Shown: positions 2,035 through 54,202 of the stretch, one piece after another | Layout of the letters: each line of letters starts with the position of its first letter | Position numbering within the stretch: position 1 is the first letter of the stretch | From: Gemmatimonadota bacterium | GTDB lineage: Bacteria; Gemmatimonadota; Gemmatimonadetes; Gemmatimonadales; GWC2-71-9 | Length of the DNA stretch: 56,005 nucleotides | Assembly: GCA_039587215.1 (NCBI GenBank) | Contig: JBDHIW010000002.1 | Coordinates: forward strand, 8,546-64,550 | Direction of reading: 5' to 3' | Notes under the pieces: model-generated | What the model was told of the DNA's origin: nothing | The model's database searches: none | Seen by the model: only the letters and a program-made list of their open reading frames with translations | Program-made: the position numbers and the translations under genes

Positions 2035-3381
2035 ATGACACAGACGATCGACCGATCCCGCGCTCACGAGCCCTACGTCGCGGCCTTCGACGCCTTCGCG
2101 GGCAACGGGGCGGCAGCGGCACCCGACTGGCTCAAGGAACGACGCGCCGCCGCGATTGCCCGGTTTGCCGATCACGGGTTTCCCACCACGCGTGAGGAGG
2201 CCTGGCGGTTCACCGACCTGAAGCCGCTGCTCGAGACGACGTTCGACCCGGCGGTCGCCGCGGCCACGCCGGACGCGGCCGCGCTCGCCGCGCTGGGCTT
2301 CGCCGACGAGCGGGCAGCGACCCTCGTGGTCGCCAACGGCCGCGTCGCCGCCGATGCCGCACCGCTTCCTGAACTGCCCGCTGGGGTGGTGGTCGGGAGT
2401 CTCGCGGCGGCGCTGTCCGACGGGAGCCTCCCGCTCGACGCCGTGCTCGCGGCATCGGGTATCGACGCGCGGACGCCGTTCGGAGCGCTCAACACGGCGT
2501 TCCTGGCCGACGGTGCGCTCGTGTACGTCCCGCGCGGGGTCGCGCTCGACGTGCCGATCCACGTCGTGTTCCACTCGAGTGGAGCGCACGCGCTGACCGC
2601 CGGGCGCCTGTTGGTGGTGCTCGAGGAGGGCGCGACGGCGACCCTGGTCGAGACGCACACGGGTCCCGAAGGACAGCGCTACTGGAGCAATCCCGTGACG
2701 GAGCTGGTGGTGGGCGCGAACGCGCGCCTCGACGCCTATCGGCTCCAGCGGGAGTCGACCGCGGCGTATCACACGGCGGCGGTGCACTCGCGGGTAGACC
2801 GCGACGGCGTGTGCTCGCTCATCACGATGTCGTTCGGGGCCGCGCTCAGCCGTCAGGACATTGTGGCGGTGCTCGCCGGTCCGGGTGCCGAGAGCACCGT
2901 CAACGGCCTGTCGCTCCTGGGCGGCCGGCAGCACGTCGACTACCACACCGTCCTGGATCACGCGGAGCCGCACTGCAACAGCTGGGAGTACTTCAACGGC
3001 GTGTTCGGTGACCGCGCCCGCGGCGTGTTCACGGGGCGCATCATCGTCCGTCCGGGCGCCCAGAAGACGGACGCCAAGCAGACGAACAACAACGTGCTGC
3101 TTTCCGCACAGGCGCGCGCCGATTCGCAACCGCAGCTCGAGATCTACGCCGACGACGTGAAGTGCACGCACGGGGCGACGTTGGGGCCGATCGACGACGC
3201 GCACCTGTTCTACCTACAGAGCCGCGGCTTGTCGGACGAGGACGCACGGAAGCTGCTGACGTACGGGTTCGCGTCCGAGATCATCCGTGGCGTGACGTAC
3301 GAGCGACTCGCCGCGTGGCTCGACGGCTTCGTACAGACACGGCTCGCAGCACTCACTGGAGGGGTTACGAGCGAGGGATGA
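2035..3381 (+). CDS. sufD: Fe-S cluster assembly protein SufD
   Basis: ATG 2035 after GAGGA; FPTTREEAWRFT, AQKTDAKQTN, PQLEIYADDVKCTHGAT, FYLQSRGL. Confidence 0.95.
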   Translation: MTQTIDRSRAHEPYVAAFDAFAGNGAAAAPDWLKERRAAAIARFADHGFPTTREEAWRFTDLKPLLETTFDPAVAAATPDAAALAALGFADERAATLVVANGRVAADAAPLPELPAGVVVGSLAAALSDGSLPLDAVLAASGIDARTPFGALNTAFLADGALVYVPRGVALDVPIHVVFHSSGAHALTAGRLLVVLEEGATATLVETHTGPEGQRYWSNPVTELVVGANARLDAYRLQRESTAAYHTAAVHSRVDRDGVCSLITMSFGAALSRQDIVAVLAGPGAESTVNGLSLLGGRQHVDYHTVLDHAEPHCNSWEYFNGVFGDRARGVFTGRIIVRPGAQKTDAKQTNNNVLLSAQARADSQPQLEIYADDVKCTHGATLGPIDDAHLFYLQSRGLSDEDARKLLTYGFASEIIRGVTYERLAAWLDGFVQTRLAALTGGVTSEG

Positions 3382-41824: not shown

Positions 41825-43861
41825 ATGACCAACCGATTGCTCGACCGTCCCGTGGCCAAGCGGCCCGCCACGGTGCAGTTCGATGGCCGCATCCTGTTCC
41901 TCGCAGACGACGCGGATCTCGTACGGCGGCAGCTCGCGGGGGAAGACCTGGCGTGGCCGGTGGACACCCCGCTCCGGGACAACATCTCCACCGACGAGAT
42001 CACGCCTGCCTACATCTGCTACTACTACGACGAAAAGCTCGGCGACTTCCCGTACCTCGGTCTCAAGGCGGGTGAGGAGTTCCCCATCGAGCCCGGCTCC
42101 GTCCGCGCAGGGGGGTTCGTCTGCTCCGTGTCGGGCAAGCGGCGCGGGAAGGGGTCGTCGCGCGAGCAGTCGCCGTATGCGGAGCTCTGCGCCGGCATCC
42201 GGCTGGTGATCGCCGAGAACATCGAACGCATCTACCGCGAGAACTGCCAGAACCTCGGGATCCTCACGAGCACGGACTTCGGGCTCATCGAGCGGCTGCG
42301 GTCCGGGGAGGAGATCCCCCTCGACGAGTTCACGGCGGGACTCGGCGAGATTACGCGCGGCATCATCGAGTACGGGGGTCTGTTCCAGTACAACGTCGCG
42401 AGAATGCAGGGGCAGGTGACGGTTCCGGTGCCAGACACCCCCGCTCGCCCCATGACGCTCGGCGAGAAGATCATCGCGCGGCACTGGGTGAAGGACCTCG
42501 CGCGCGGTGCCGTCGGCGTCGATGCGGTCCGCCCCGGCGACGAAGGCTTCGTCCAAACCGACATTCGCTTCAGTCACGAGTACGTCACCCCCATGTCGGC
42601 CATCTTCTGGCGCGACCTGGTCGGTGAGAACGAGAAGGTCGTGGAGCCGGAGTCCATCTTCTTCTTCCGCGACCATCTGACGTTCCTCGAGATTGCGATG
42701 ACCGAAGAGCGCAAGGCGCAGGGCCTGCTCGACGTCGCGCTCGAGCTCAAGAAGAAGCAGGAGGACTTCGCGGAGCAGCAGGGCGTACGGCTCTACGGCG
42801 AGTTGCCGGGCCGCGGGCTCCACGGCATCCCGGTTGGATCGGAAGCCATCTGTCACTCGAAGATCCTGGAACAGCACGCGCTTCCCGGACACCTCATCAT
42901 CGGCAGCGATTCGCACACGCCGCACGCGGGCGCCATCGGTGCTGTGGCGTTCGGTGTCGGCACGACGGCGATCTTCAACTCGTGGCTGACCAAGGACGTC
43001 CGGATCACGGTGCCACCGTCGGTGCTGATCCGGGTCAACGGAGCGACGCCGCCCAACGTGACGGCGAAGGACTTCATGCTGCAGATCCTCCGCCACCCGT
43101 ACGTGAAGAACGGACACGCGATCGGGAAGATCGTCGAGTACGCCGGAGAGGCGGTGGAGGCGCTCTCGATCGACGAGCGCGCGACGATGACCAACATGGC
43201 GGCCGAAGTAGGCGCCTTCACCGGCGTGATTCAGCCGGACGAGAAGGCGGTCGAGTTTCTCGTGCGCGAACGCGGCGCCGACGCCGCGGAGGTCCGGGCG
43301 CTGCTCGACGGACTCGTATCGGACGAGGGTGCCGAGTACGAGACCGTGATCGACATCGACGCCACAACCCTCCAGCCGATGGTGGCCCTCCCCGGCGACC
43401 CGGGCAACGGGCTCTTCATCGACGAACTCGGCGACCCGGTGCGCGTCGATATCGCCTACGCGGGGTCCTGCACGGCGGGCAAGAAGTCCGACATGGACAT
43501 GTACGCTGCCGTGTTCAAGGACGCGCTCGATCGAGGCCAGCGGATTTCGGAGCACGTCAAATGCTTCATCCAGTGCGGGTCGCAGGAGGTGAAGCGGTAC
43601 TGCGAGGAGCGGGGGTACCTGGAGGTGTTCCGCGACGTCGGCGCCGAATTCATCGAGCCGTCATGCGGTGCGTGCATCAACGCGGGGCCGGGCGTCTCCT
43701 ATGACCGCGACACGGTCACCGTGAGTGCCATCAACCGGAACTTCCCCGGGCGGTCCGGTCCGGGTCAGCTCTATCTGGCGAGTCCGTACACGACGGCGGC
43801 CAGCGCCGTCGCCGGCGTGATCACGACCTGGAATGCCGAGGGCGTGCCGGCAGAGGTCTAG
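41825..43861 (+). CDS. Aconitase-family [4Fe-4S] dehydratase, LeuD-like swivel fused N-terminal to LeuC-like domain
   Basis: DNISTDEITP, GKGSSREQS (swivel); MTLGEKI, DH, ICH, GSDSHT, AKD, GSCT, PSCGAC, NRNFPGR, YLASP. Confidence 0.9.
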   Translation: MTNRLLDRPVAKRPATVQFDGRILFLADDADLVRRQLAGEDLAWPVDTPLRDNISTDEITPAYICYYYDEKLGDFPYLGLKAGEEFPIEPGSVRAGGFVCSVSGKRRGKGSSREQSPYAELCAGIRLVIAENIERIYRENCQNLGILTSTDFGLIERLRSGEEIPLDEFTAGLGEITRGIIEYGGLFQYNVARMQGQVTVPVPDTPARPMTLGEKIIARHWVKDLARGAVGVDAVRPGDEGFVQTDIRFSHEYVTPMSAIFWRDLVGENEKVVEPESIFFFRDHLTFLEIAMTEERKAQGLLDVALELKKKQEDFAEQQGVRLYGELPGRGLHGIPVGSEAICHSKILEQHALPGHLIIGSDSHTPHAGAIGAVAFGVGTTAIFNSWLTKDVRITVPPSVLIRVNGATPPNVTAKDFMLQILRHPYVKNGHAIGKIVEYAGEAVEALSIDERATMTNMAAEVGAFTGVIQPDEKAVEFLVRERGADAAEVRALLDGLVSDEGAEYETVIDIDATTLQPMVALPGDPGNGLFIDELGDPVRVDIAYAGSCTAGKKSDMDMYAAVFKDALDRGQRISEHVKCFIQCGSQEVKRYCEERGYLEVFRDVGAEFIEPSCGACINAGPGVSYDRDTVTVSAINRNFPGRSGPGQLYLASPYTTAASAVAGVITTWNAEGVPAEV

Positions 43862-45162
43862 CGGGTCGGCGCGTCCGCCCGGGACGATGGTGACGGGCGA
43901 AAGCCCCCCGGCGGGTACACGCCGCGGGCGTTCCACATCACCCAATCCGTGATGCCGAGGTCCTCGGCGGCCTGAATCTGTGCGCGGACCTCCGTGGCGG
44001 TGTAACGAACGCCGCGGATCGAGAAGCTCTGCAGATAGGGCCGAATCTGTGCTGCGTTCGGGATGTCGGCGGAGCGTGCCACGGCATCCACCAACGCGCG
44101 GCGTACCGTCTCGTATGGCTCGGCGTTCGGGAATCCGATACCGTACGAGCCGCGGCCGTAGTGGCTCGGGTAGATCATGGGCAACAGCACGTCGGCCAGC
44201 GTCGAGAGGTCATCCCACGCCTGCCCGATCCCGAGGTCGCCGGTCGCACTCGTCGTGAGTCCGAAGACGTCGAGGGTAAGCGGCACGCCCAACGCGCGCA
44301 CCCGGTCGCGCAGCATGGCGACATGCCGACCGATGGCGGCCCGCCGGCTCTCGCCGTTGCGTTGCGCTTCGAAGCGGGCGTGCCGCATGCGGGAGGCGCG
44401 CTCGTCGGGGAAGCGCACGTAGTCGAACTGGATCTCCTCGAACCCCATGAGCACCGCTTCCGCTGCGAGGTCCGCGGCGTAGATCCACACCGAATCGTGG
44501 TAGGCGTCGACCCACGGCTCGTCGAGACCGTCGCGCCACAGACCGCCTCGGCGGTCTTTGATAGCCCACGCCGGTTTCCGTGTGGCGAGCAGGGCGTCGC
44601 GCGCCACGACGATCCGCGCGATCGGGTGAATGCCGTGCTCGCGGAGCCGTACGAGCCGGCTCTGCAGATCGGGCGCGCGCACCATGCCGTTCGCCCCGAT
44701 CTCGATGGCCGTCGGAACCGCCGACCGGTACGTCAGATAGCCCGTCGCGTCCTTCACGTCGATCACGAACGCGTTGACCTCGGTCGTGTCCGCGAGCGCG
44801 AGCAGCGGCTCGAGCCGGCTCGAGCCGAAGACCCAGGCGTTGAGGTACAGGCCGCGAACGGCCGCGGGTAGTTCCCCCGAGGGCGGCGGGGGGATGGGAA
44901 TCGGATCCGGCGGGACGTCGCCGACCCGGTAGACCGGAAACTCGGATGTGTGGTGGAGTCGGGTGACCGCCGGCACGTCGGCCGGCGGGGGCGGAAACGC
45001 GATCTCGGGCACTGCGCGGCCCGCCAGCTCGCCCGCATAGTCGGGAATGGCGGCGCGGTGATGGGGCACGGCGAACGACGCGCCGTCTTGGGCGCGGCTC
45101 GCGGCGGGGCCGCACATGGCGGCGATCGCCATCAGTGCGAGAACTCGTGTGGTCGACCGGAT
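43858..45162 (-). CDS. Secreted putative glycoside hydrolase (DUF4015-like TIM barrel), probable ATC start
   Basis: VRGLYL, NAFVIDVKD, IARIVV, GFEEIQFDYVRFPD, DVFG, IGQ, PMIYPSHY, RPYLQSF, WNA; AAGGAGG 5 nt before an in-frame ATC. Confidence 0.82.
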   Translation of the reverse strand: MRSTTRVLALMAIAAMCGPAASRAQDGASFAVPHHRAAIPDYAGELAGRAVPEIAFPPPPADVPAVTRLHHTSEFPVYRVGDVPPDPIPIPPPPSGELPAAVRGLYLNAWVFGSSRLEPLLALADTTEVNAFVIDVKDATGYLTYRSAVPTAIEIGANGMVRAPDLQSRLVRLREHGIHPIARIVVARDALLATRKPAWAIKDRRGGLWRDGLDEPWVDAYHDSVWIYAADLAAEAVLMGFEEIQFDYVRFPDERASRMRHARFEAQRNGESRRAAIGRHVAMLRDRVRALGVPLTLDVFGLTTSATGDLGIGQAWDDLSTLADVLLPMIYPSHYGRGSYGIGFPNAEPYETVRRALVDAVARSADIPNAAQIRPYLQSFSIRGVRYTATEVRAQIQAAEDLGITDWVMWNARGVYPPGGFRPSPSSRADAPTR

Positions 45163-45180
45163 GCGTGCCTCCTTGAGCGC

Positions 45181-45214
45181 AAAGACGGCGCGTGGTGACG
45201 CGCCGCCTTTTCTT
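45181..45214. terminator. Hairpin/terminator downstream of the OmpA gene
   Basis: AAAGACGGCGCGT-GGTG-ACGCGCCGCCTTT 13-bp stem (the mismatch is G-U on the minus-strand RNA); T/A tracts on both sides. Confidence 0.7.
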
Positions 45215-45238
45215 CCAACTCGCTAGGACGCTACGCGT

Positions 45239-46801
45239 TCAGGGTTGCTCGAGCAAGTGAAGCTCGACTCGACGGTTCCGGCGTCGGCCGTCCGGCGTCG
45301 CATTGTCCGCGATCGGACGGTCGGGTCCGTAGCCGCGCGCCACCATTCGGTCGGGCCGAACACCCTGGCGGGCGAGATAAGCCTTGACCGACTGTGCGCG
45401 TGCAAGCGACAGGCGTTGGTTGACCTGCAGCGACCCGCTGGCGTCGGTGTGCCCGGCGATCTCGATCCGGACCATGGGATTCGCCATCAGCGACTCGGCC
45501 ACGCGATCGAGGGCGGCATACGACTCCTCGGTGAGGGCGGACCGGCCCGACTGGAAGGTCACGTCCTCCAGCACGAGCGGGCGGGCAACACCCTGCTCGA
45601 CGAGGAACAGCGTCGGGCACCCGGTCGCGTCGACGGATTCGCCCGCCCGCGTGGCGGGGCAGGCGTCATCCGGATCGAGCACCCCGTCGCCGTCGCTGTC
45701 GCGGACGACCTCACAGCCGCGCGCGTCGACCTCCGTGCCCGCGGCGGTGTTCGGGCACGCGTCCGACGGATCTTCGACGCCGTCACCGTCCGTATCCCGG
45801 ACGCAGCCCGCTGCGTCCACGGGAGCGCCGGCGGGGGTCGCCGGGCACTGATCGAGGCCGTCGTACACCCCGTCGGCGTCGCCGTCCAAGGGACAGCCGC
45901 GCGCGTCGATCTCGGCACCGGCCGGGGTGTCCGGACAGGCGTCGAGTCCGTCGAACACACCATCGACGTCGGTGTCGACCGGACATCCGTTCGCATCGAC
46001 GGCCGCACCGCCGGGAGTGTTCGGGCAGACGTCGATGCCGTTCACCACGGCATCGCCGTCGGAGTCCATGGCGCACCCGGACGTGTCGACGTCGGCGCCT
46101 GCGGGCGTGTCCGGACAGGCGTCGAGTCCGTCGAACACCGTGTCGGCGTCGCCGTCGAGCGGGCAGCCTCGCGGATCGACGAGGGCGCCGAGCGGGGTGC
46201 CCGGGCAGTCGTCGGCTCTGTCGGCCACGCGGTCGCCGTCACGATCGCGGGGTGGGCCGCCGAAGGCGAAGATGGACAGGCCCGCGGCGACCGAGAGGTT
46301 CGTGGTTCTGGCCGTACCGGGCGGCAGCTGGGTCGTGGGGACGTAGTCGATGCGCCCTTCGATCCGGAACGCGGTCCGTCCCCCGAATCCGATACGGTCG
46401 CCGATGACGCCGTGCACGCCGTTGTCGACGCCCTGGGTCACCCCGCGGTAGAAGAGCCGCGTGTACCCCGCACCGAGATAGACGGACCCCAGTGGGGTCC
46501 CGAGGTGCCCGGTCAGGGTGCCGCCCACGCGTGTCACGCGCACGCGTTCCCCCGTCGCGGTCAGTTGTGACTGGGTGTGGTCGGCGACGCCGTCGATCGA
46601 GAGAAACCGCGCGAGGTAGATCCCGAACCACCCACCGGCACCGAACGCGTTGTCGGCGCCCACGCTCGCGGCATCGAAGCGGGTGAAGGACCCGAACGCG
46701 CCCATCTCCACTTGGCCGCCCCGGCCGGTCTGGGCACGCACCGTGGGAACGGCGACGACCGAGAGGACGAGGACGAAGAGGGTACTCCGCCAGCGGAACA
46801 T
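45239..46801 (-). CDS. OmpA family outer membrane protein with thrombospondin type-3 repeats
   Basis: Signal peptide, beta-barrel, seven DxDxDG...CP...GC repeats, IAGHTD...NQRLSLARAQSV...NRRVE peptidoglycan-binding domain. Confidence 0.93.
   Translation of the reverse strand: MFRWRSTLFVLVLSVVAVPTVRAQTGRGGQVEMGAFGSFTRFDAASVGADNAFGAGGWFGIYLARFLSIDGVADHTQSQLTATGERVRVTRVGGTLTGHLGTPLGSVYLGAGYTRLFYRGVTQGVDNGVHGVIGDRIGFGGRTAFRIEGRIDYVPTTQLPPGTARTTNLSVAAGLSIFAFGGPPRDRDGDRVADRADDCPGTPLGALVDPRGCPLDGDADTVFDGLDACPDTPAGADVDTSGCAMDSDGDAVVNGIDVCPNTPGGAAVDANGCPVDTDVDGVFDGLDACPDTPAGAEIDARGCPLDGDADGVYDGLDQCPATPAGAPVDAAGCVRDTDGDGVEDPSDACPNTAAGTEVDARGCEVVRDSDGDGVLDPDDACPATRAGESVDATGCPTLFLVEQGVARPLVLEDVTFQSGRSALTEESYAALDRVAESLMANPMVRIEIAGHTDASGSLQVNQRLSLARAQSVKAYLARQGVRPDRMVARGYGPDRPIADNATPDGRRRNRRVELHLLEQP
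45614..46246 (-). repeat. Seven tandem ~90-bp TSP3 coding repeats
   Basis: 30-aa periodicity; exact 32-bp copy GTGTCCGGACAGGCGTCGAGTCCGTCGAACAC at 45927-45958 and 46107-46138. Confidence 0.9.
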
Positions 46802-46899
46802 GTCTTCAATCTACTACGCTCTTCCGGCACCGACAGGCATTGTCGCCCCTCCGGACGCGTGCATTAGCTTACGGATGTCATCGCCGCACAGAGGAGCAT

Positions 46900-47133
46900 A
46901 TGAAAGTCGCCATCCAGTTCTGCGTCGTCTGAAACTACGGTCCCCGCGCCGCCAGTTTGGCGGACGAGATCCGTGAGGCCTATCCCTCCGGCGATGTCCT
47001 GCTCGTCGACGGGTCGGGTGGCGTATTCGAAGTCTCGGTTGACGGAGACCTCGTTTTCTCGAAGATCGCGCTCGGACGTCACGCCGAGCCGGGAGAGGTG
47101 CTGGGCCTGATCCGGGAGCACCTCGGGGAGTAG
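46900..47133 (+). CDS. SelW/SelT/SelH (Rdx family) selenoprotein, UGA 46930-46932 = Sec
   Basis: GAGGAG SD, ATG 46900; MKVAIQFCVV-U-NYGPRAASLADEI...GSGGVFEVSVDGDLVFSK..GRHAEPGEV...LGE-TAG 47133; CxxU plus GxFEV motif. Confidence 0.93.
46933..46968 (+). promoter_or_regulatory. Putative bacterial SECIS element
   Basis: CCGCC-AGTTT-GGCGG hairpin (46949-46963); loop starts 21 nt after the UGA and has G at its second position. Confidence 0.7.
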
Positions 47134-47136
47134 ACC

Positions 47137-48216
47137 ATGCGCATCGCCATTTCAACCGGCGGGGGAGACGCGCCGGGGCTGAATGCGGTGATCAGGGCAG
47201 CTGTCGTGGGGGCGTTGAACCGCGGGTGGGAGGTCTTCGGCATTCGGCGGGGATTCGGCGGTCTCCTGGGCGACGCCCGGGTCGTGCCGCTCGACCGCGA
47301 GAGCGTGCGCGGGATCACCCACCTCGGCGGGACCATTCTCGGCACGACCAACCGCGGAAATCCCTTCCGCTGGCCGCACCTGCAGACCGACGGAACGTGG
47401 GTGGAGGAAGACCGCTCCGAGGAGGCTCTGGAGGCGTTCCGGGCGCTCGAACTGGACGCGCTGATCGCCGTCGGCGGCGATGGGACGCTGCACATCGCAC
47501 GCGAACTCTGGCGGAGGGGTCTGCCCGTGGTGGGCGTGCCGAAGACGATCGACAACGACGTCGGCGCCACCGTCGTCACGTTCGGCTTCGACACGGCGGT
47601 CACGACGGCGACCGAGGCGCTCGACAAGCTGCACTCGACGGCGGAAGCGCACGAGCGCGTCATGGTCGTCGAGGTGATGGGGCGCCACGCGGGATGGATC
47701 GCCCTCAACTCCGGACTCGCGGGTACCGCCGACGTCATCCTCATGCCCGAGATTCCGTACCGGATGGATTCCGTGATCGCGAAGGTGCGCGAGCGCGAAG
47801 CTGCCGGGCGGCACTTCAGCATCATCGTCGTCGCCGAGGGGGCCGCTCCGGCGGAAGGCTCTCCGACGTACCAGGCTGAGGCCGCGGCCGGGGGGACGGC
47901 CCGGCTGGGTGGTGTCGCAGAAGCGATCGCGGCGGTGATCCAGGAGCAGACCGGCAAGGAGACCCGGTCGCTGACGCTTGGGCACCTGCAGCGCGGAGGC
48001 ACGCCGACGACGTTCGACCGGCTGCTCGGACTGCGATTCGGTGCGGCGGCGGTGCGCGCGGTGGAACGCGGCGAGTTCGGTTCGATGGTCGCGCTGGATC
48101 CGCCGACGATCCTCACGGTGCCGATGGACGACGCCCTGGGCACCGTCAAGGGCGTCCCGCTCGACTCGGACAGCGTGGTGACGGCTCGAGACCTGGGTAT
48201 CTGCCTGGGTGACTGA
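47137..48216 (+). CDS. pfkA: 6-phosphofructokinase (group III-like)
   Basis: TGGGDAPGLNA, GGTILGT, GGDGT, PKTIDND, TFGFDTA, EVMGRHAGW, VAEGA, LGHLQRGG. Confidence 0.93.
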   Translation: MRIAISTGGGDAPGLNAVIRAAVVGALNRGWEVFGIRRGFGGLLGDARVVPLDRESVRGITHLGGTILGTTNRGNPFRWPHLQTDGTWVEEDRSEEALEAFRALELDALIAVGGDGTLHIARELWRRGLPVVGVPKTIDNDVGATVVTFGFDTAVTTATEALDKLHSTAEAHERVMVVEVMGRHAGWIALNSGLAGTADVILMPEIPYRMDSVIAKVREREAAGRHFSIIVVAEGAAPAEGSPTYQAEAAAGGTARLGGVAEAIAAVIQEQTGKETRSLTLGHLQRGGTPTTFDRLLGLRFGAAAVRAVERGEFGSMVALDPPTILTVPMDDALGTVKGVPLDSDSVVTARDLGICLGD

Positions 48217-50839
48217 CACCGAGGAGCGCGCGGACGGCGCCGCGCCGCTCCGTCACGTCCGCGACCACTACCTGCCGCCCGACCGGGCGGCGTACCGCCG
48301 GGCCGAGCCTTCGACTGGCCGTGTGATCGTCATCGCGCCGACACGCGCGGCGTGCGAGACCATCGAATTGGCGTGCGGGCTCACCATCGACACGGTCTTG
48401 TCGCGCGCGCATGGCGACGAGGTGCGGTCGCTGGCCGCGGGCGGCAGAGGATTCGGCATTGTCGCGGGTACGGGGACCGGGAAGACGCTCGCGGTACGGC
48501 TCATCGCGGAAGAGACGGTCGGCACACCCCTGCGCATCGGCGTCGTGAACCGCGAGCGCGAGGCGACGCCGGAGACCCCCAGTTGGAACGTCGTGATCGT
48601 GACGACCGGCATCGCGCGAAGGTGGTTTCAGGACGATCTCATCCAGCCGCAGGACACGCTCGTCGTCGACGAGATCCACCAGACGTCGGCGGAGCTCGAG
48701 TTGTGCTTGGCCCTGGGGAAACGCGTGGGGTGTCGGTTCATCTGGTTGTCCGCGACGGTGGACCCCTCGTTCTACGAGCGCTACCTGGACGCGTCGGCGG
48801 TGCTGGAAACCTCGGCGTTCGACCCCGCGCTGAGCGCCAACGTTGCGACCGCACGCCGCACGCCGGTGGACTTCTTCGATCGGGGGGTGCTGCGCCGGTT
48901 CGTGCGCGAGGAGCGAGGCGTCGCGGTGTTCCTGCCGACCCGATCGGAAGTCGAAAAGTTGGCGGCGGAACTGGGGGACGAGTGGCCCGAGATCGCGACG
49001 GCCTTCTATCACGGCGGCGAGCCGATCCGCGTGATCCGTCCGTTCCTCGAGGGGACCGCGGAGCGACCCTATCTGCTCGTGATGACGCAGGCTGGGCAGT
49101 CGGCGCTCAACATCCACGGCCTGGACACGGTCGTGATCTACGACGCGTGCTACCAGAACCGGGTTCTCGGTGGGCGCAACGTGCTCCAGCGGCAGTACTT
49201 GGGTCCCAACGAGATCCTGCAGATGGCGGGCCGGGTCCACGGTCGGGTGGCCCAGGGTGAGGTACACATCCTCACGGACCGTGACATCGACTTCTTTGCC
49301 CTCGAACCCGTCCCGCCGCAGTTCCAACTAGCGGGCGACTCCGAGCGGGTCGCGTTGACGGCGGCCGCACTCGGTGTGGACCTGTCGGATCTCGAGTTGC
49401 CCGTGCCCCTGGACCGGCGGGCCTACCGTGCGGCGCGGCGGCGGCTGGAGGATCGCGGGATCGTGGACGGCGGGCGGCTCACGGCGTACGGCCGTGAGGT
49501 GGAGGCGATGCCCGTCGACCGTCCCTGGGCTGAACTGCTCGTGCACGCCTCGGACGCGCTGGCGCCGTACGTGGCCGTTGCCGCCAGCGTCGATTCACTC
49601 CATCGGATGACGCGGGACCTCGTGGACCTCCGCGGCCTCGAGGTGTACGGCAGCGATCATCTCACGGTGTACAACGTGTACGCGGAGGCGGTCAACCTCT
49701 ACGGCAGCGTCGGCGAGGTCTACGGTCTGCCGCGCCATGTCTTCGATCCGACGATCGAGGAGTGGGCCCAGGATCGTGGGGTGCTCGTGAAGGCGATCGA
49801 AGACGCGGCGCTCGGCATGGCATCCGTCTACCGCACGCTCGAGTTGCCGCTACCTGAGGCGCTCCCGATCGTGGACCGCGCAGCCGCGCGCGCGTATCGG
49901 GACCTGGTTGCCCGGGTGTGCCCGTTCGACCTCGTCGTCGACGGAGAGACGGCTGACGGGTCGCGGGTGCGCATCTCGGACTCCTCGATGTGCTCCCGAG
50001 GGAGCGCGGTCGCCGGACCCATTCGGTATTTCGCGGACCGGTTCGGCCGCCCGCGCGGCGCGATCGAAGGCACCACCCTCTCGCGGGAGTTGATGCGACG
50101 CCATGCGACCCGGGAGGGTCCCGTCGTCGAGTATCGAGGCGAGCGGGGCCGCACCCGGTTGGTGGCGGTGGAGACGCTCACCTATGCCGGCTTCACCCTG
50201 GATCGGATCTCGGAGCCGGTGAGGGGATTCCCGGAGGACCTCGCGGAGGAGATTCGCGGGGCGATGGCGGACGGACTCATGCGGGGCGTCACGGAGCATC
50301 CGGGACAGCGGGAGGTCGGACGGGTGGCCGCGCGTATCGACGAGTACTGGCGACGTTCCGGGGGAACCCTCGACGGAGCGAATCCGGAGCGCGTGCGTGC
50401 GGGGCTGCTCGAGCAACTCAGTGAGGTGAAGAGCCACGCGGACTTCATGGCGGCGTCTCTGCACCTCGACCTCGATGCCGCGGTGTTGCCGCGGGACCGG
50501 CATCCCCTCGACGCCCTTCCGGACTCCGCCTTCGTGCTCGGCGACCGTGTGCCGCTCCGGTACGACGTGGCCGAGGGCCGCCCGATCGTGGAACTGGCAC
50601 TCCGCGAAAAGCAGGCCAGGCGGCTTCGCGCACAGGACCTGCCGGACGTTGATCGGGATCTCGTGTTCGTGGTTTACCGAGGCCGAACGGAACTGCTGCG
50701 CGCGCGGTCGCTGCCGCAGCTGCGCGGGAGTCTCCGTGGGCTACGCCCGCCTCCACGAGGTGGAGGTGGTGGGCGTAGCGGGCGCGGCGGACGCGGTGGG
50801 CGTAGCGGAAGCGGTGGGAGGGGGCGCCGGCGCCGTTAG
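48209..50839 (+). CDS. DExH-box (HrpA/HrpB-like) helicase with RGG tail
   Basis: AGTGTGKT, TTGIA, DEIH, SAT, FLPT, YHG, QMAGRVHGR, LT.YG..V..MP; C-terminal GRSGRGGRGGRSG. Confidence 0.85.
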   Translation: MTDTEERADGAAPLRHVRDHYLPPDRAAYRRAEPSTGRVIVIAPTRAACETIELACGLTIDTVLSRAHGDEVRSLAAGGRGFGIVAGTGTGKTLAVRLIAEETVGTPLRIGVVNREREATPETPSWNVVIVTTGIARRWFQDDLIQPQDTLVVDEIHQTSAELELCLALGKRVGCRFIWLSATVDPSFYERYLDASAVLETSAFDPALSANVATARRTPVDFFDRGVLRRFVREERGVAVFLPTRSEVEKLAAELGDEWPEIATAFYHGGEPIRVIRPFLEGTAERPYLLVMTQAGQSALNIHGLDTVVIYDACYQNRVLGGRNVLQRQYLGPNEILQMAGRVHGRVAQGEVHILTDRDIDFFALEPVPPQFQLAGDSERVALTAAALGVDLSDLELPVPLDRRAYRAARRRLEDRGIVDGGRLTAYGREVEAMPVDRPWAELLVHASDALAPYVAVAASVDSLHRMTRDLVDLRGLEVYGSDHLTVYNVYAEAVNLYGSVGEVYGLPRHVFDPTIEEWAQDRGVLVKAIEDAALGMASVYRTLELPLPEALPIVDRAAARAYRDLVARVCPFDLVVDGETADGSRVRISDSSMCSRGSAVAGPIRYFADRFGRPRGAIEGTTLSRELMRRHATREGPVVEYRGERGRTRLVAVETLTYAGFTLDRISEPVRGFPEDLAEEIRGAMADGLMRGVTEHPGQREVGRVAARIDEYWRRSGGTLDGANPERVRAGLLEQLSEVKSHADFMAASLHLDLDAAVLPRDRHPLDALPDSAFVLGDRVPLRYDVAEGRPIVELALREKQARRLRAQDLPDVDRDLVFVVYRGRTELLRARSLPQLRGSLRGLRPPPRGGGGGRSGRGGRGGRSGSGGRGRRRR

Positions 50840-51423
50840 CCGGCCGACTGCTCGGCAATGGCGAGCATGCCGAGCCATGACGCCATGTACGCCGAGCGAA
50901 TTTCCCCAGGGTCCGCGCCCGATCCAAGCGCCGCACCCAGCCCAACGATGGTCGACGCCAGCCACCAGCCTACCTCGCCCGGCAGAAGTCTCGCGTCCAG
51001 TCCTCCGCGTTCGGCAAGCGAGTTGTAGGCGATTCCCAGCGCGGTAGCGAAGGCAGCAACCCCGCTACTGTCCCTTTGGTCAGTACTGAACAGCAGCGAG
51101 GACCAACCACCTGGGCTGCCATTTACTGACTCGGCGGTCAATAAATCCCATGTTGCGTCCATAGCATCGGGGATCGTGGCCGCTCGATCGAGGCAATCCG
51201 TCCAGCTCGAGATCCGTTCCGCGCTCATCCGATCAAGCGCAGCGTCGATGAGCGCCTGTTTGTTCCCGAAGTGATAAGTGATGAGACCCTTCGCACAGCC
51301 GGCGTGCTCGGCCACCGCGTCCACGGTGATCCGGTCGGCAGGAACCGTCTTGAGGAGCTCAGCGGCGGCGGCCGTCAGGAGATCTCGGGACTCCTCCTTG
51401 GTTCGTCGGGCGCGTTTGGCCAT
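50836..51423 (-). CDS. TetR/AcrR family transcriptional regulator
   Basis: RRTKEESRDLL.AAA.LL...ITVDAVAEHAGCAKGLITYHFGNKQAL; GGAG SD upstream of ATG 51423. Confidence 0.88.
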   Translation of the reverse strand: MAKRARRTKEESRDLLTAAAAELLKTVPADRITVDAVAEHAGCAKGLITYHFGNKQALIDAALDRMSAERISSWTDCLDRAATIPDAMDATWDLLTAESVNGSPGGWSSLLFSTDQRDSSGVAAFATALGIAYNSLAERGGLDARLLPGEVGWWLASTIVGLGAALGSGADPGEIRSAYMASWLGMLAIAEQSAG

Positions 51424-51439
51424 GTTATGACTCCGTTTA

Positions 51440-51505
51440 TTGACCCATTGTACAGTATATGAAATGGGCCAACGAAACACAACGTACTATACTGCTGGTC
51501 AGTAT
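51440..51505. promoter_or_regulatory. Divergent promoter region with two inverted repeats
   Basis: TTGACCCATT-N13-AATGGGCCAA (51440-51472, one mismatch) and ATACTG-N5-CAGTAT (51489-51505); TATACT hexamers on both strands. Confidence 0.6.
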
Positions 51506-51581
51506 GGGGGTCTATTCAGGGCTGTCCAGAGTTGAAACCGGTAGATGATGTCTCCGTAGGTGGGGCTAGCGGACGAACAAC

Positions 51582-52028
51582 ATGCACACGCCCCCAGCAG
51601 ATCTACCCCAGTCCACGGCCCGCGCGGTCCTGAACGCACTCCCCGAGGCGGTGTTCTTCTTCGCACCCGACGGGCGCTGCCGCTACGCGAACATGCACGC
51701 GAGAGAACTGGCGCGCGGGCTCGGCCTTTCGCTGCCGATCACCTCGGAGTCGCTGGGCTCACTGGGAGCGCAGGGAGCGCGGATCTATCCCGTGTGGGAC
51801 GGCGATGCGAAGCTCGGCGAGTTGGTCGTCGTGGCCAACGGAGCGACAGACGAGAACACGCTGGCGGATCGGGAGCGGAATGCGATTCTCGAGATGCTGC
51901 AGCAGACCGGCTGGAGGCTCTCCGAGAGTGCGAGGCGGCTCGGGATTTCACGAACGACCCTCTGGCGCCGGCTCAAGGCGTACGGCCTCGACCGTGACGG
52001 ACGAGGGCGATGGTCGCGCTCCTCCTAG
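51582..52028 (+). CDS. PAS-like domain fused directly to a Fis-type HTH
   Basis: VLNALPEAVFFFAPDGRCRYAN (PAS start); TLADRERNAILEML...W.LSESARRLGISRTTLWRRLKAYGL (HTH_8). Confidence 0.82.
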   Translation: MHTPPADLPQSTARAVLNALPEAVFFFAPDGRCRYANMHARELARGLGLSLPITSESLGSLGAQGARIYPVWDGDAKLGELVVVANGATDENTLADRERNAILEMLQQTGWRLSESARRLGISRTTLWRRLKAYGLDRDGRGRWSRSS

Positions 52029-54202
52029 CGAGCCTGCTGGTCGGCGCTGCGCCTGCGGACACGGCGACGTTCGCCGATGCCCGGACTGAATCTCTCTACT
52101 ACATCGCCAGAGCCCGCCACCTCCGTCAGGACTCGATCGTCCGGGACTATCAGGCGACCGTCCACACCCGGATCGACGCGACGGCGGGTCGCAGCCGTTT
52201 CGCCAGGCTGGCCACCCTGTGGGTGCATGAGTCCGAGGCGGACATCGCCTGGCACGCACCGAATGACCTGAAGATCAGCGTCCGCGGTGCCCGCACGAAG
52301 GTCCCCGTCATGGGCCTCCTGCCGGAGCTGCGGGCCGCGGAGGCGGAGCTTCGTGAAGAGTTCCGCGGACAGGTGCTCCTGGACCGACCGTGGTTCATCC
52401 CGCGTTCGCTGGGGGACAGCATTCGGCTCATGGGGTTGCCGACGGTCGCAGCGTTGCACCCGCTGGCCCCGGGGGCGGAGGCCTACTACCGGTTCGCCGT
52501 GCTGGATTCGGCTCGTCTCCGGCTGCCCGGCCGCGAGGTACGCACCGCACGACTCAGGGTCGAGCCCAAGGCCGTGGCACCGGCCCTCGTCGCCGGTCAC
52601 GTCTGGCTCGACGTCGAAACTGGTGACGTGGTGCGCATGCGCCTCTTGTTTCTGGGTGAGTACCTGTGGGACTCGCCGGAGGACGCTACCCCGGACGACA
52701 GTCTCGATGCGCAGGCCACGACCGAGCGCGTCATGCGCCACGTGACCCTGGAGGCCGAACTCGAGTACGTGCTCGTCAACAGCCTCTACTGGATGCCGTA
52801 CCGTCAGTACCTCGGCATCACGGCGGAGATACCGATCATCCTCAATCTCACCGTGCCCGCCCGTGCGGTGAGCACGTTCAGCAATTACCGGGTCAACACC
52901 GGCCGCCGCGTCGGCTTCACGATTCCGGACTCGCTGCTCGAGGCCGACGGCGATGCGGAGACGTGGGACGGGGACGGCGACAGCGACGAAGGTGACGAAG
53001 GGGAGGTGGGGGACCGTCGGGAGGCCAGGCGGGACTCGCTGGGATACGCGCGCGGAGCCACGTGGCGGGACGGTCGCTGGGAAGTGTCGGTGCCGCCGCG
53101 CGACTCGGTTGCCGCCTACGACTGGCCGGACGAACTCGCCACCGAGATGGACCCCGCGGCCGAGGCGCGGCTTGCCGAGACGATTGCCGAGCTTGCGGCG
53201 TTGGAGGACCGCCTGCCGTCGGAGTGGACGAATCGTCGCCGGTTCCGGCTCGCCTGGGAGAAAGTGAGCGAGGTGGTCCGGTTCAATCGTGTTCAGGGTC
53301 TGTCGCTGGGCGCCGGCATCGAAATTCGGCCGCGCATTCCCCACACCAGCCTGCTCCTCGGCGGGCGCATGGGTTTGTCCGACCTCCGGCCCCTGGGAAG
53401 CGTCACCGTGCGGCACGACGGCCCGGGTGGGCGTCTCGACGTGGCGGGCTATCGCACCATGCGGGAAGCGGAACCTTGGACCAGCGGCTTGGGAATCGGC
53501 AATTCCCTGAACGCGCTGTTCACGGCGCACGACGACGCGGACTACTTCCTCGCGACCGGCGGGTCGTTCACGTGGATCTGGAACCGCGGACTGCTGCGCG
53601 ACGTCCACGTGACCCTGGCGTACGAGCGGCACGACAGCGTGCAGGTCGAGAGCGGCTCTGCGATCGCCGATCTGTGGGGCACGGGCACGTTCCAGCCAAA
53701 CCCCCCGGTGGATGAGGAGTGGTTCGGAAGTGGGGCAGTGACCCTGAACCGCAGGATCGGGCCGGTCGGCTTCGGGGTCGGCGCGAGCCTGCTCACCGAC
53801 TGGGCCCGCGTGTCCGGTCGCGGCTGGATGCACGCCGACGTCGGGTTCCGGGTCGCCGGCCGGTCGGGCCGTCTTGCCGGGCGCCTCGCCGCCATGCGCG
53901 GCGACGTGATGCCGCAGACGCTGTGGCGCGTCGGCGGACCGCAGACGGTGCGGGGGTACACGTACGGCACGCGCACCGGCCGCTATCTCTGGTCCCTCCA
54001 GCTCGACATGGCGCTCACCCGCTCGGCGATCGTGACCCCGGTCGCGTTCGTGGATGCCGGCGACACGTTCGTCGGAGACCCGTTGGTCGGCGTCGGCGGT
54101 GGCCTGTCGATCCTCCGCGGCCTCATTCGCTTCAACGTCTCCGCCGGCGTTCGCCCCAAGACCGAGGCGCGGTTCGATTTGATGTTCCGGGCGCCGCGTT
54201 AG
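52010..54202 (+). CDS. Putative outer membrane beta-barrel protein (Omp85-like C-terminus)
   Basis: Signal peptide; RFNRVQGLSLG; alternating amphipathic strands; GGPQTVRGY resembles the Omp85 VRGY loop; FVDAG. Confidence 0.65.
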   Translation: MVALLLASLLVGAAPADTATFADARTESLYYIARARHLRQDSIVRDYQATVHTRIDATAGRSRFARLATLWVHESEADIAWHAPNDLKISVRGARTKVPVMGLLPELRAAEAELREEFRGQVLLDRPWFIPRSLGDSIRLMGLPTVAALHPLAPGAEAYYRFAVLDSARLRLPGREVRTARLRVEPKAVAPALVAGHVWLDVETGDVVRMRLLFLGEYLWDSPEDATPDDSLDAQATTERVMRHVTLEAELEYVLVNSLYWMPYRQYLGITAEIPIILNLTVPARAVSTFSNYRVNTGRRVGFTIPDSLLEADGDAETWDGDGDSDEGDEGEVGDRREARRDSLGYARGATWRDGRWEVSVPPRDSVAAYDWPDELATEMDPAAEARLAETIAELAALEDRLPSEWTNRRRFRLAWEKVSEVVRFNRVQGLSLGAGIEIRPRIPHTSLLLGGRMGLSDLRPLGSVTVRHDGPGGRLDVAGYRTMREAEPWTSGLGIGNSLNALFTAHDDADYFLATGGSFTWIWNRGLLRDVHVTLAYERHDSVQVESGSAIADLWGTGTFQPNPPVDEEWFGSGAVTLNRRIGPVGFGVGASLLTDWARVSGRGWMHADVGFRVAGRSGRLAGRLAAMRGDVMPQTLWRVGGPQTVRGYTYGTRTGRYLWSLQLDMALTRSAIVTPVAFVDAGDTFVGDPLVGVGGGLSILRGLIRFNVSAGVRPKTEARFDLMFRAPR

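Follow-up and report, generated by a model that had tools for sequence, protein, structure and literature searches.

Can the supply of selenium determine how much of a glycolytic enzyme a bacterium makes? The question is raised by three consecutive genes on the forward strand of a 56,005-nucleotide stretch of DNA (hereafter the window) from a Gemmatimonadota bacterium of the order Gemmatimonadales (assembly GCA_039587215.1, contig JBDHIW010000002.1, positions 8,546 to 64,550). They encode a small SelW-like selenoprotein, a 6-phosphofructokinase (gene pfk, protein Pfk) and a DExH helicase. A preliminary description of the locus, made from the letters alone, had proposed that translational coupling ties pfk expression to selenocysteine (Sec) insertion and had named a synteny survey of relatives, including Cys-form homologues, as a check. 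The evidence given below tips slightly in favour of a lineage-specific operon in which the selenoprotein gene is the first cistron, pfk is translationally coupled to it via termination and reinitiation, and Pfk output follows Sec decoding. The gene identities, the Sec machinery, the SECIS element, the conserved junction and the lack of a conserved nucleotide element in the 3' half of SelW are shown by the analysis; co-transcription, coupling and selenium dependence are the parts of this reading that we infer. The three genes and the codon in question are located as follows.

46900..47133, + strand: SelW-like (Rdx family) selenoprotein gene of 77 codons, with ATG at 46900, stop TAG at 47131-47133 and a CVVU redox motif
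46930..46932, + strand: in-frame TGA at codon 11, predicted to be read as Sec; the TGA is conserved in relatives and Sec machinery is present in the genome
47137..48216, + strand: pfk, encoding a 6-phosphofructokinase of the PFK_mixed subfamily (359 amino acids), with ATG at 47137, stop TGA at 48214-48216 and the motifs GGDGT and PKTIDND
48209..50839, + strand: gene for a DExH (DEIH) helicase of the DEAH/RHA superfamily with a predicted HrpB-like fold (876 amino acids), starting with GTG at 48209

Two collections of related loci were used for comparison. Set A comprised 41 genomes, namely the window's own, 3 of the same genus, 21 of the same family and 16 of the same order. Set B was drawn from 498 confirmed loci in a species-genome collection, of which the best 80, all from Gemmatimonadota, were used; 3 of these 80 duplicate set A loci. 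Since the relatives are kin, the counts given for them are not numbers of independent events.

Few bacterial selenoproteins are as widespread as the SelW-like proteins. With TGA translated as Sec (U), the first open reading frame (ORF) of the locus begins MKVAIQFCVVU, residues 8-11 forming the CVVU motif. The ORF matched the Rdx model PF10262 from end to end (E 3.4e-19; 69.3 bits, cut-off 22.6; model positions 1-74 of 74) and also passed NF041051 (89.1 bits, cut-off 88) and TIGR02174 (58.9 bits, cut-off 34.2), while its profile found the solved Rdx proteins 2fa8, 3dex and 2npb. Among 30 aligned SelW sequences, conservation extended to both sides of the TGA, and C8 and position 11 were invariant. 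Exactly one TGA was present in each of the 39 Rdx matches of set A, and the TGA was found in all 78 parsed loci of set B. On these matches the stretch 46900..47133 is assigned as a full-length member of the Rdx/SelW-like family.

A bacterial Sec insertion sequence (SECIS) is defined as a hairpin shortly past the UGA with conserved loop bases. Such an element was identified just downstream of codon 11.

46947..46965, + strand: SECIS hairpin with core stem 46949-46953 paired with 46959-46963 and an AGUUU loop at 46954-46958, predicted by comparative alignment

In the 30 sequences aligned from the UGA onward, a 7-bp helix starts 14 nucleotides (nt) past the UGA, and the loop in relatives is (G/A)GU(C/U)U with invariant G and U; in the window's own copy only five upper and two lower pairs form. 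Pair 21-39, between the third base of an Arg codon and that of an Ala codon, occurs as GC (16), CG (8), AU (3), GU (1) and UA (1). The covariation score of the helix was 0.258, compared with 0.097 for shuffled alignments; none of 500 shuffles reached the observed value, and slid controls stayed at or below 0.06. Third-position entropy in 104 distinct genes was 0-0.56 bits at SelW codons 17-21 and 0.87-1.96 bits at all other scorable codons. Folding of the single sequence past the UGA was not significant (z -0.71), and the SECIS was detected by comparative analysis only. A search of Rfam over 44000-53000 returned nothing relevant, the three matches being at chance level and under their gathering scores.

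The genome contains selA (495 bits), selD (371 bits) and tRNA-Sec (78 bits, anticodon tca). For selB only fragments at contig edges were found, including a C-terminal piece, and the family model stayed below its cut-off; the best match (172.7 bits, model positions 1-264 of 581) is consistent with another translational GTPase. Since the selB fragments sit at contig edges of a Gemmatimonadales metagenome-assembled genome that is 87% complete and consists of 302 contigs, the shortfall is read as an assembly gap; selB was above the cut-off in all five SelW-bearing relatives checked. The selD gene, located outside the window (G000:C18:20698-21630, locus L009), itself carries one in-frame TGA, so that selenophosphate synthetase is a selenoprotein here as well. 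UGA-11 is thus predicted to be recoded via a canonical bacterial SECIS, and, short of labelling, we take the selenoprotein as established. The selenoprotein ORF that the preliminary description had placed ahead of pfk is borne out by the Rdx model matches, the conserved TGA and the covarying SECIS.

The product of the second gene matched the phosphofructokinase family PF00365 (E 3e-103) and the PFK_mixed model TIGR02483 (434.8 bits, cut-off 430.55). It passed the ATP-named subfamily model NF002872 (368.4 bits versus 253) and remained under the cut-offs of the ATP equivalogs NF010674 and TIGR02482. The Gly in GGDG and the Lys in PKTIDND form the mixed pattern, which is usually read as ATP-type and may point to ATP rather than pyrophosphate as the phosphoryl donor.

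Linkage of the two genes is strongly conserved. One Rdx match each was found in 39 of the 41 set A genomes, and pfk lies directly downstream of SelW in 37 of these 39, among them the unpublished genome G017. The exceptions were G016, where the helicase gene follows SelW directly, and G035. In set B, 56 loci have a full-length, adjacent pfk, 3 have one truncated by a contig end, 2 have a partial one and 18 have none; one locus, ending right after SelW, was not evaluable. Within these best 80 of 498 loci, SelW is thus followed by pfk in 59 of the 79 evaluable ones. Fragments of pfk were seen after SelW in L098 (residues 1-42, at 3240-3365) and, as partial matches, in L082, L084, L089 and L109; they reflect either gene decay or frameshifts in the assembly.

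The helicase gene is less tightly placed. In set A it lies immediately after pfk in 15 genomes, 0.2-0.7 kb on in 8, 1.3-3.8 kb on in 5 and 9 kb off in 1; in 7 genomes it is on another contig, and in 1 it was not found. It is located downstream of SelW in all 18 pfk-less loci of set B, at less than 100 nt in 4, at less than 1 kb in 12 and further away in 2. In four of the pfk-less loci (L055, L059, L070 and L071) an opposite-strand ORF of about 304-323 amino acids with a signal-peptide-like N-terminus stands between SelW and the helicase gene. Outside the order, SelW with TGA was present in 20 of 20 genomes of the same class, pfk was the next gene in 2 of them, both of family f4, and no helicase gene was found within 5 kb downstream of SelW in any of the 20; the downstream neighbours of SelW vary in other orders of the class.

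In the window the preliminary description had seen 3 nt between the selenoprotein stop and the pfk ATG and a GGGGAG within the final selenoprotein codons, and both are confirmed (the spacer is ACC).

47125..47139, + strand: SelW/pfk junction, comprising GGGGAG (Shine-Dalgarno (SD)-like, 47125-47130, last SelW codons), TAG, ACC (47134-47136) and the pfk ATG

In the window and in 29 of 30 set A loci the pfk start lies between -10 and +48 nt from the SelW stop. Of 110 sequences, 84 could be parsed with both genes, the others lacking pfk or remaining unparsed, and the unpublished G017 locus was left out; pfk start codons were assigned by the conserved N-terminus, 7 residues before GGGD. The junctions fall into three types.

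Overlapping (NTGA; TAATG/TAGTG; NTGCGCATAG): 44 of 84 loci (52%); pfk starts GTG 23, TTG 13, ATG 8
Separated by 0-10 nt: 24 of 84 loci; pfk starts ATG 22, TTG 2
Separated by 11-48 nt: 16 of 84 loci; pfk starts ATG 12, GTG 4

No gap in the 84 loci exceeds 48 nt, which therefore leaves no room for an intergenic promoter. TTG starts were found only in SelW-linked pfk (15 of 84, versus 0 of 14 in SelW-less orthologues), and it is only these starts and the overlaps that are special to the linked state. Folding of the junction revealed no unusual structure hiding the pfk start (z 0.18), and third-position entropy at SelW codons 57-70 was ordinary (0.87-1.96 bits), giving no sign of a conserved embedded element there.

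Transcription of the proposed operon would start upstream of the selenoprotein gene, in the intergenic region between two divergent genes.

46802..46899, no strand assigned: divergent intergenic region between a gene for an OmpA/thrombospondin type 3 repeat protein (- strand) and the SelW-like gene, the presumed operon promoter region, with AGAGGAG (SD-like) at 46890-46896

A scan with a sigma-70-like consensus found nothing between 46500 and 51200, not even ahead of SelW, where a promoter must exist, and is uninformative for this phylum. The earlier observation that pfk has no obvious promoter of its own thus stands in the literal sense that none was seen upstream of pfk, and it says little, as the scan was blind throughout this interval. 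Among relatives, 55 of 103 distinct loci carry the motif CTAYSRT ahead of the SelW start; it belongs to a longer conserved stretch, GTGTCAAGCGCGACTATCGTT, and in 27 loci it sits at -14 or -13 from the start. None of 104 SelW 3' ends contains it. The GTGTCAAGCGCGACTATCGTT stretch recurs in relatives (L054, L060 and L075, for example) at 13-55 nt before the start of SelW. A motif of the same type (CTACGAT/CTATGAT) is present upstream of pfk in 5 of 14 SelW-less loci, and the window itself has no exact copy. This distribution suggests that CTAYSRT may be a promoter giving a nearly leaderless mRNA. The one terminator-like hairpin with a T-run, inside SelW (47032-47049), was considered as a conserved attenuator and rejected: 1.4 such sites are expected by chance, and its T-run relies on a GTT codon that only 4 of 75 relatives use.

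The proposed coupling would operate as follows. Ribosomes that pass Sec insertion would finish SelW, terminate at or near the pfk start and re-initiate there, so that Pfk synthesis would scale with successful Sec decoding and helicase synthesis would do so more weakly. When Sec-tRNA or SelB is short, translation would end at codon 11, some 200 nt short of pfk, and the coupling would be lost; the untranslated stretch past codon 11 may also cause transcriptional polarity. A stronger version, in which the SelW-like gene is a selenium-sensing leader cistron only ribosomes inserting Sec at codon 11 arrive at the overlapping pfk start and hold transcription coupled, and pfk synthesis is set order-wide by Sec-decoding capacity, with a ribosome- or RNA-directed DEAH helicase behaving likewise in some genomes, appears doubtful.

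A number of observations weigh against dependence of pfk on SelW, and several of them agree with a plain account, in which the genes are merely co-located or co-expressed, the ancestral Gemmatimonadales order being kept by inertia and operon compaction while pfk initiates independently from SD-poor sites and selenium has little effect. In the window, pfk starts with ATG and is preceded by a good SD (GGGGAG, -7.6 kcal/mol), which makes de novo initiation plausible there. Across the relatives, SD pairing ahead of pfk averages -4.45 kcal/mol, the same as a mid-gene control (-4.43) and weaker than ahead of SelW (-5.36); by itself this neither supports nor excludes coupling. The 14 pfk orthologues of SelW-less genomes start with GTG in 9 cases and ATG in 5, never with TTG, and have an equally weak SD (mean about -4.4 kcal/mol). 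Poor signals for initiation thus characterise the lineage and do not mark coupling, and independent initiation at such pfk starts clearly works in this lineage. Weak SD and non-ATG starts, which had been considered as evidence for coupling, were dropped on account of this control. In addition, 4-nt overlaps are common in bacterial operons generally. The pfk/helicase junction is not conserved: among 15 loci it ranges from -8 to +74 nt. The SelW-pfk linkage does not extend beyond one order and one neighbouring family (f4, 2 of 20 loci outside the order), with varied SelW neighbours in other orders, a restricted pattern that fits inherited gene order as well as function. SelW survives without pfk in 18 of 80 set B loci, four pfk-less loci have an opposite-strand gene splitting SelW from the helicase gene, and pfk survives without SelW in relatives that lack the Sec trait.

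A strict gate on glycolysis is further weakened by a second PFK-family gene in the window's genome (37% identical; 260.7 bits with NF002872, cut-off 253) and by the absence of an invariant cysteine among 83 aligned Pfk orthologues; in 19 of 37 linked genomes, however, no PFK-family gene other than the linked pfk matches at E 1e-20 or better. Metatranscriptome contigs were compared with the locus. Those of the sediment run X1 match, with 0-1 differences, SelW 46938-47124, pfk 47423-47609, the pfk/helicase overlap 48067-48221 and helicase 49713-49858, and between them runs X1 and X2 cover portions of each of the three genes at the same 0-1 differences. No contig of either run bridges the SelW/pfk junction (47133/47137), stretches without cover carry no weight, and RNA libraries can contain DNA, so that expression of the locus is at most hinted at. 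Against inert gene order stand the junctions, which never exceed 48 nt in loci whose proteins are only 53-76% identical and more than half of which overlap, the lack of the promoter-like motif in all the SelW 3' ends, and the TTG starts confined to the linked state; besides, an overlap of stop and start usually brings some dependence on upstream translation. We consider co-location alone rather unlikely, although a serious contender.

The link could also lie in the proteins, the SelW-like oxidoreductase acting on Pfk or the helicase through thiol/selenol chemistry, or Pfk and the helicase sharing an RNA-handling complex; on either view the gene order would mirror a common function and not a selenium gate. 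Such a link would agree with SelW being followed by pfk and/or the helicase gene in all 79 evaluable set B loci and with the helicase gene standing straight after SelW where pfk has been lost (G016 and four set B loci). The Gram-positive degradosome likewise pairs a phosphofructokinase with an RNA helicase (PMC5289998, PMC8152036). Against it, the window Pfk has a single Cys, at position 356, shared by 25 of the 83 orthologues, and since no cysteine of Pfk is conserved, SelW acting directly on the redox state of Pfk was given less weight. Moreover, pfk and the helicase gene each occur without SelW in Sec-less relatives, and in 8 of 39 genomes the helicase gene is on another contig or 9 kb off. 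We consider a protein-level link improbable. Neither this explanation nor inert gene order excludes partial coupling of pfk to SelW.

The fate of the locus in genomes without SelW was considered next to its linked state. Four of five Rdx-less relatives also lack selA; a pfk orthologue is kept in three of the five, with no SelW remnant upstream, and in a further 11 of 15 Rdx-less genomes. The fifth relative, G075 of the same family, has selA (517 bits) and neither an Rdx match nor a pfk orthologue; apparently it lost both genes jointly and retained the Sec trait. Given that selA-less relatives have no SelW, loss of the Sec trait means that SelW is lost and not converted into a Cys form, and pfk persists alone. 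The synteny survey envisaged in the preliminary description thus revealed strong conservation, and its Cys-form part came to nothing, such homologues being essentially nonexistent here and the selA-less lineages lacking SelW altogether. This agrees with a 2006 paper, in which Cys forms of SelW-like proteins are described as rare in Sec-using organisms (PMC1794560).

Across a sample of the phylum, Rdx was present in 185 of 301 genomes, the 301 including 3 unpublished ones. One TGA was found in 148 of the 150 Rdx matches listed, and the other two belong to a distinct, higher-scoring Cys-type paralogue. These stop-free matches (G208:C55:36143-36364 and G269:C57:143837-144055) scored 104-105 bits, well above the Sec forms, and G269 contains both kinds; they look like a separate Cys-type paralogue in the phylum.

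The product of the third gene weakly matched the Pfam families DEAD and Helicase_C, with DEIH as motif II. It reached only 55 bits with the HrpB equivalog TIGR01970, compared with a cut-off of 546.15, which ruled it out as an HrpB orthologue, and it matched HrpA chains with E 4e-7. An AlphaFold model built with 18 sequences had a mean predicted local distance difference test score (pLDDT) of 80.4. A Foldseek search with this model retrieved HrpB (6eud) at full length (E 9.9e-27, 887 columns), as well as HrpA, DHX37 and Prp43, at a template modelling (TM) score of about 0.5, and the full-length match takes in the C-terminal domains typical of the family (winged helix, ratchet and OB). Homologues span only about 95% of the query.

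50753..50836, + strand: C-terminal helicase tail rich in Arg and Gly (residues about 849-876), with predicted disorder (pLDDT <50)

The helicase family is large and, among the names seen, specific to Gemmatimonadota. By its modelled fold the third gene product is a DEAH/RHA helicase of a separate subfamily. GTG 48209 is the sole start codon ahead of the conserved region, so that the 8-nt pfk/helicase overlap reported in the preliminary description holds in the sequence. Downstream, the helicase stop overlaps by 4 nt (50836-50839) the stop of a convergent TetR-family gene (50836-51480, - strand), and hence there is no terminator between these genes. On the other side of the locus, the divergent neighbour of SelW (45239-46801, - strand) encodes an outer-membrane protein with a beta-barrel, thrombospondin type 3 repeats and an OmpA domain, and 43858-45132 (- strand) a putative glycosyl hydrolase with DUF4015.

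How does the locus relate to known systems? Like other members of the Rdx family (PF10262, TIGR02174; Atu0228 2fa8, SAV_2001 3dex, mouse SelW 2npb), the protein is small and has an N-terminal CxxU, and its gene has the SECIS just past the UGA; unlike them, the gene is here the fixed first cistron before pfk and/or the helicase gene across an order. In a 2026 review, the partner named for SELENOW-like proteins in selenoprotein operons is Prx (PMC13188914). No published SelW-pfk or SelW-helicase operon was found in a search that left most subscription journals outside, and supplementary selenoproteome tables could list the genes; Gemmatimonadota selenoproteins appeared in the literature only as passing mentions, judged by title. 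Within this range, the remark in the preliminary description that the arrangement is not known as a described system agrees with our search.

The nearest precedent for the proposed regulation is fdhF(Sec) of Treponema primitia, in which selenium controls transcript elongation past the Sec codon via transcription-translation coupling (Matson et al. 2013, PMC3892789). As there, failed UGA decoding would uncouple ribosomes and lower expression downstream of the Sec codon. In T. primitia the effect was measured and lies within the selenoprotein gene, whereas here it would concern a separate, non-selenoprotein gene, pfk, and act via stop/start coupling.

Classical translational coupling relies on overlapping stop and start codons such as ATGA, the trp operon is attenuated by way of a leader peptide, and in Escherichia coli SelB bound to a SECIS-like element represses selAB translation. 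The proposed operon resembles these classical arrangements in that the downstream start lies at the upstream stop and expression downstream would be governed by how much of a special aminoacyl-tRNA is available. It differs from classical leaders in that the "leader" is a conserved functional protein and no conserved terminator/antiterminator structure is present.

The helicase shares with E. coli HrpB and HrpA the DExH motif II, and its RecA1/RecA2 and C-terminal domains superpose on HrpB; the identity is only 15-18%, and, unlike HrpB/HrpA, it has an Arg/Gly-rich tail. E. coli HrpA has been reported in a preprint to rescue or split collided ribosomes (bioRxiv 10.1101/2024.09.11.612461). The Gram-positive degradosome (RNase Y, the CshA helicase, enolase and PfkA) is similar in associating a phosphofructokinase with an RNA helicase. 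It differs in being a physical, experimentally defined association, whereas the present locus offers gene linkage only, with a DEAH/RHA instead of a DEAD-box helicase and no RNase. Overall, the components and principles are known, and it is their combination that is new.

The tight, conserved link to an enzyme of central metabolism provides a concrete handle on the function of the SelW-like family. Should coupling to Sec decoding prove false, the locus would still be a natural series for studying translational coupling and the fate of selenoprotein genes after Sec loss, with the states linked, pfk lost, helicase lost, and SelW and selA lost together. If the SelW-like gene were indeed a selenium-sensing leader cistron, it would constitute a recoding-based gate on central carbon metabolism. 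If Pfk output does follow Sec decoding, selenium-dependent control, which in T. primitia acts inside the selenoprotein gene, would reach a gene downstream that encodes no selenoprotein, and glycolytic capacity would be linked to the supply of a trace element in a phylum of high abundance in soil and sediment.

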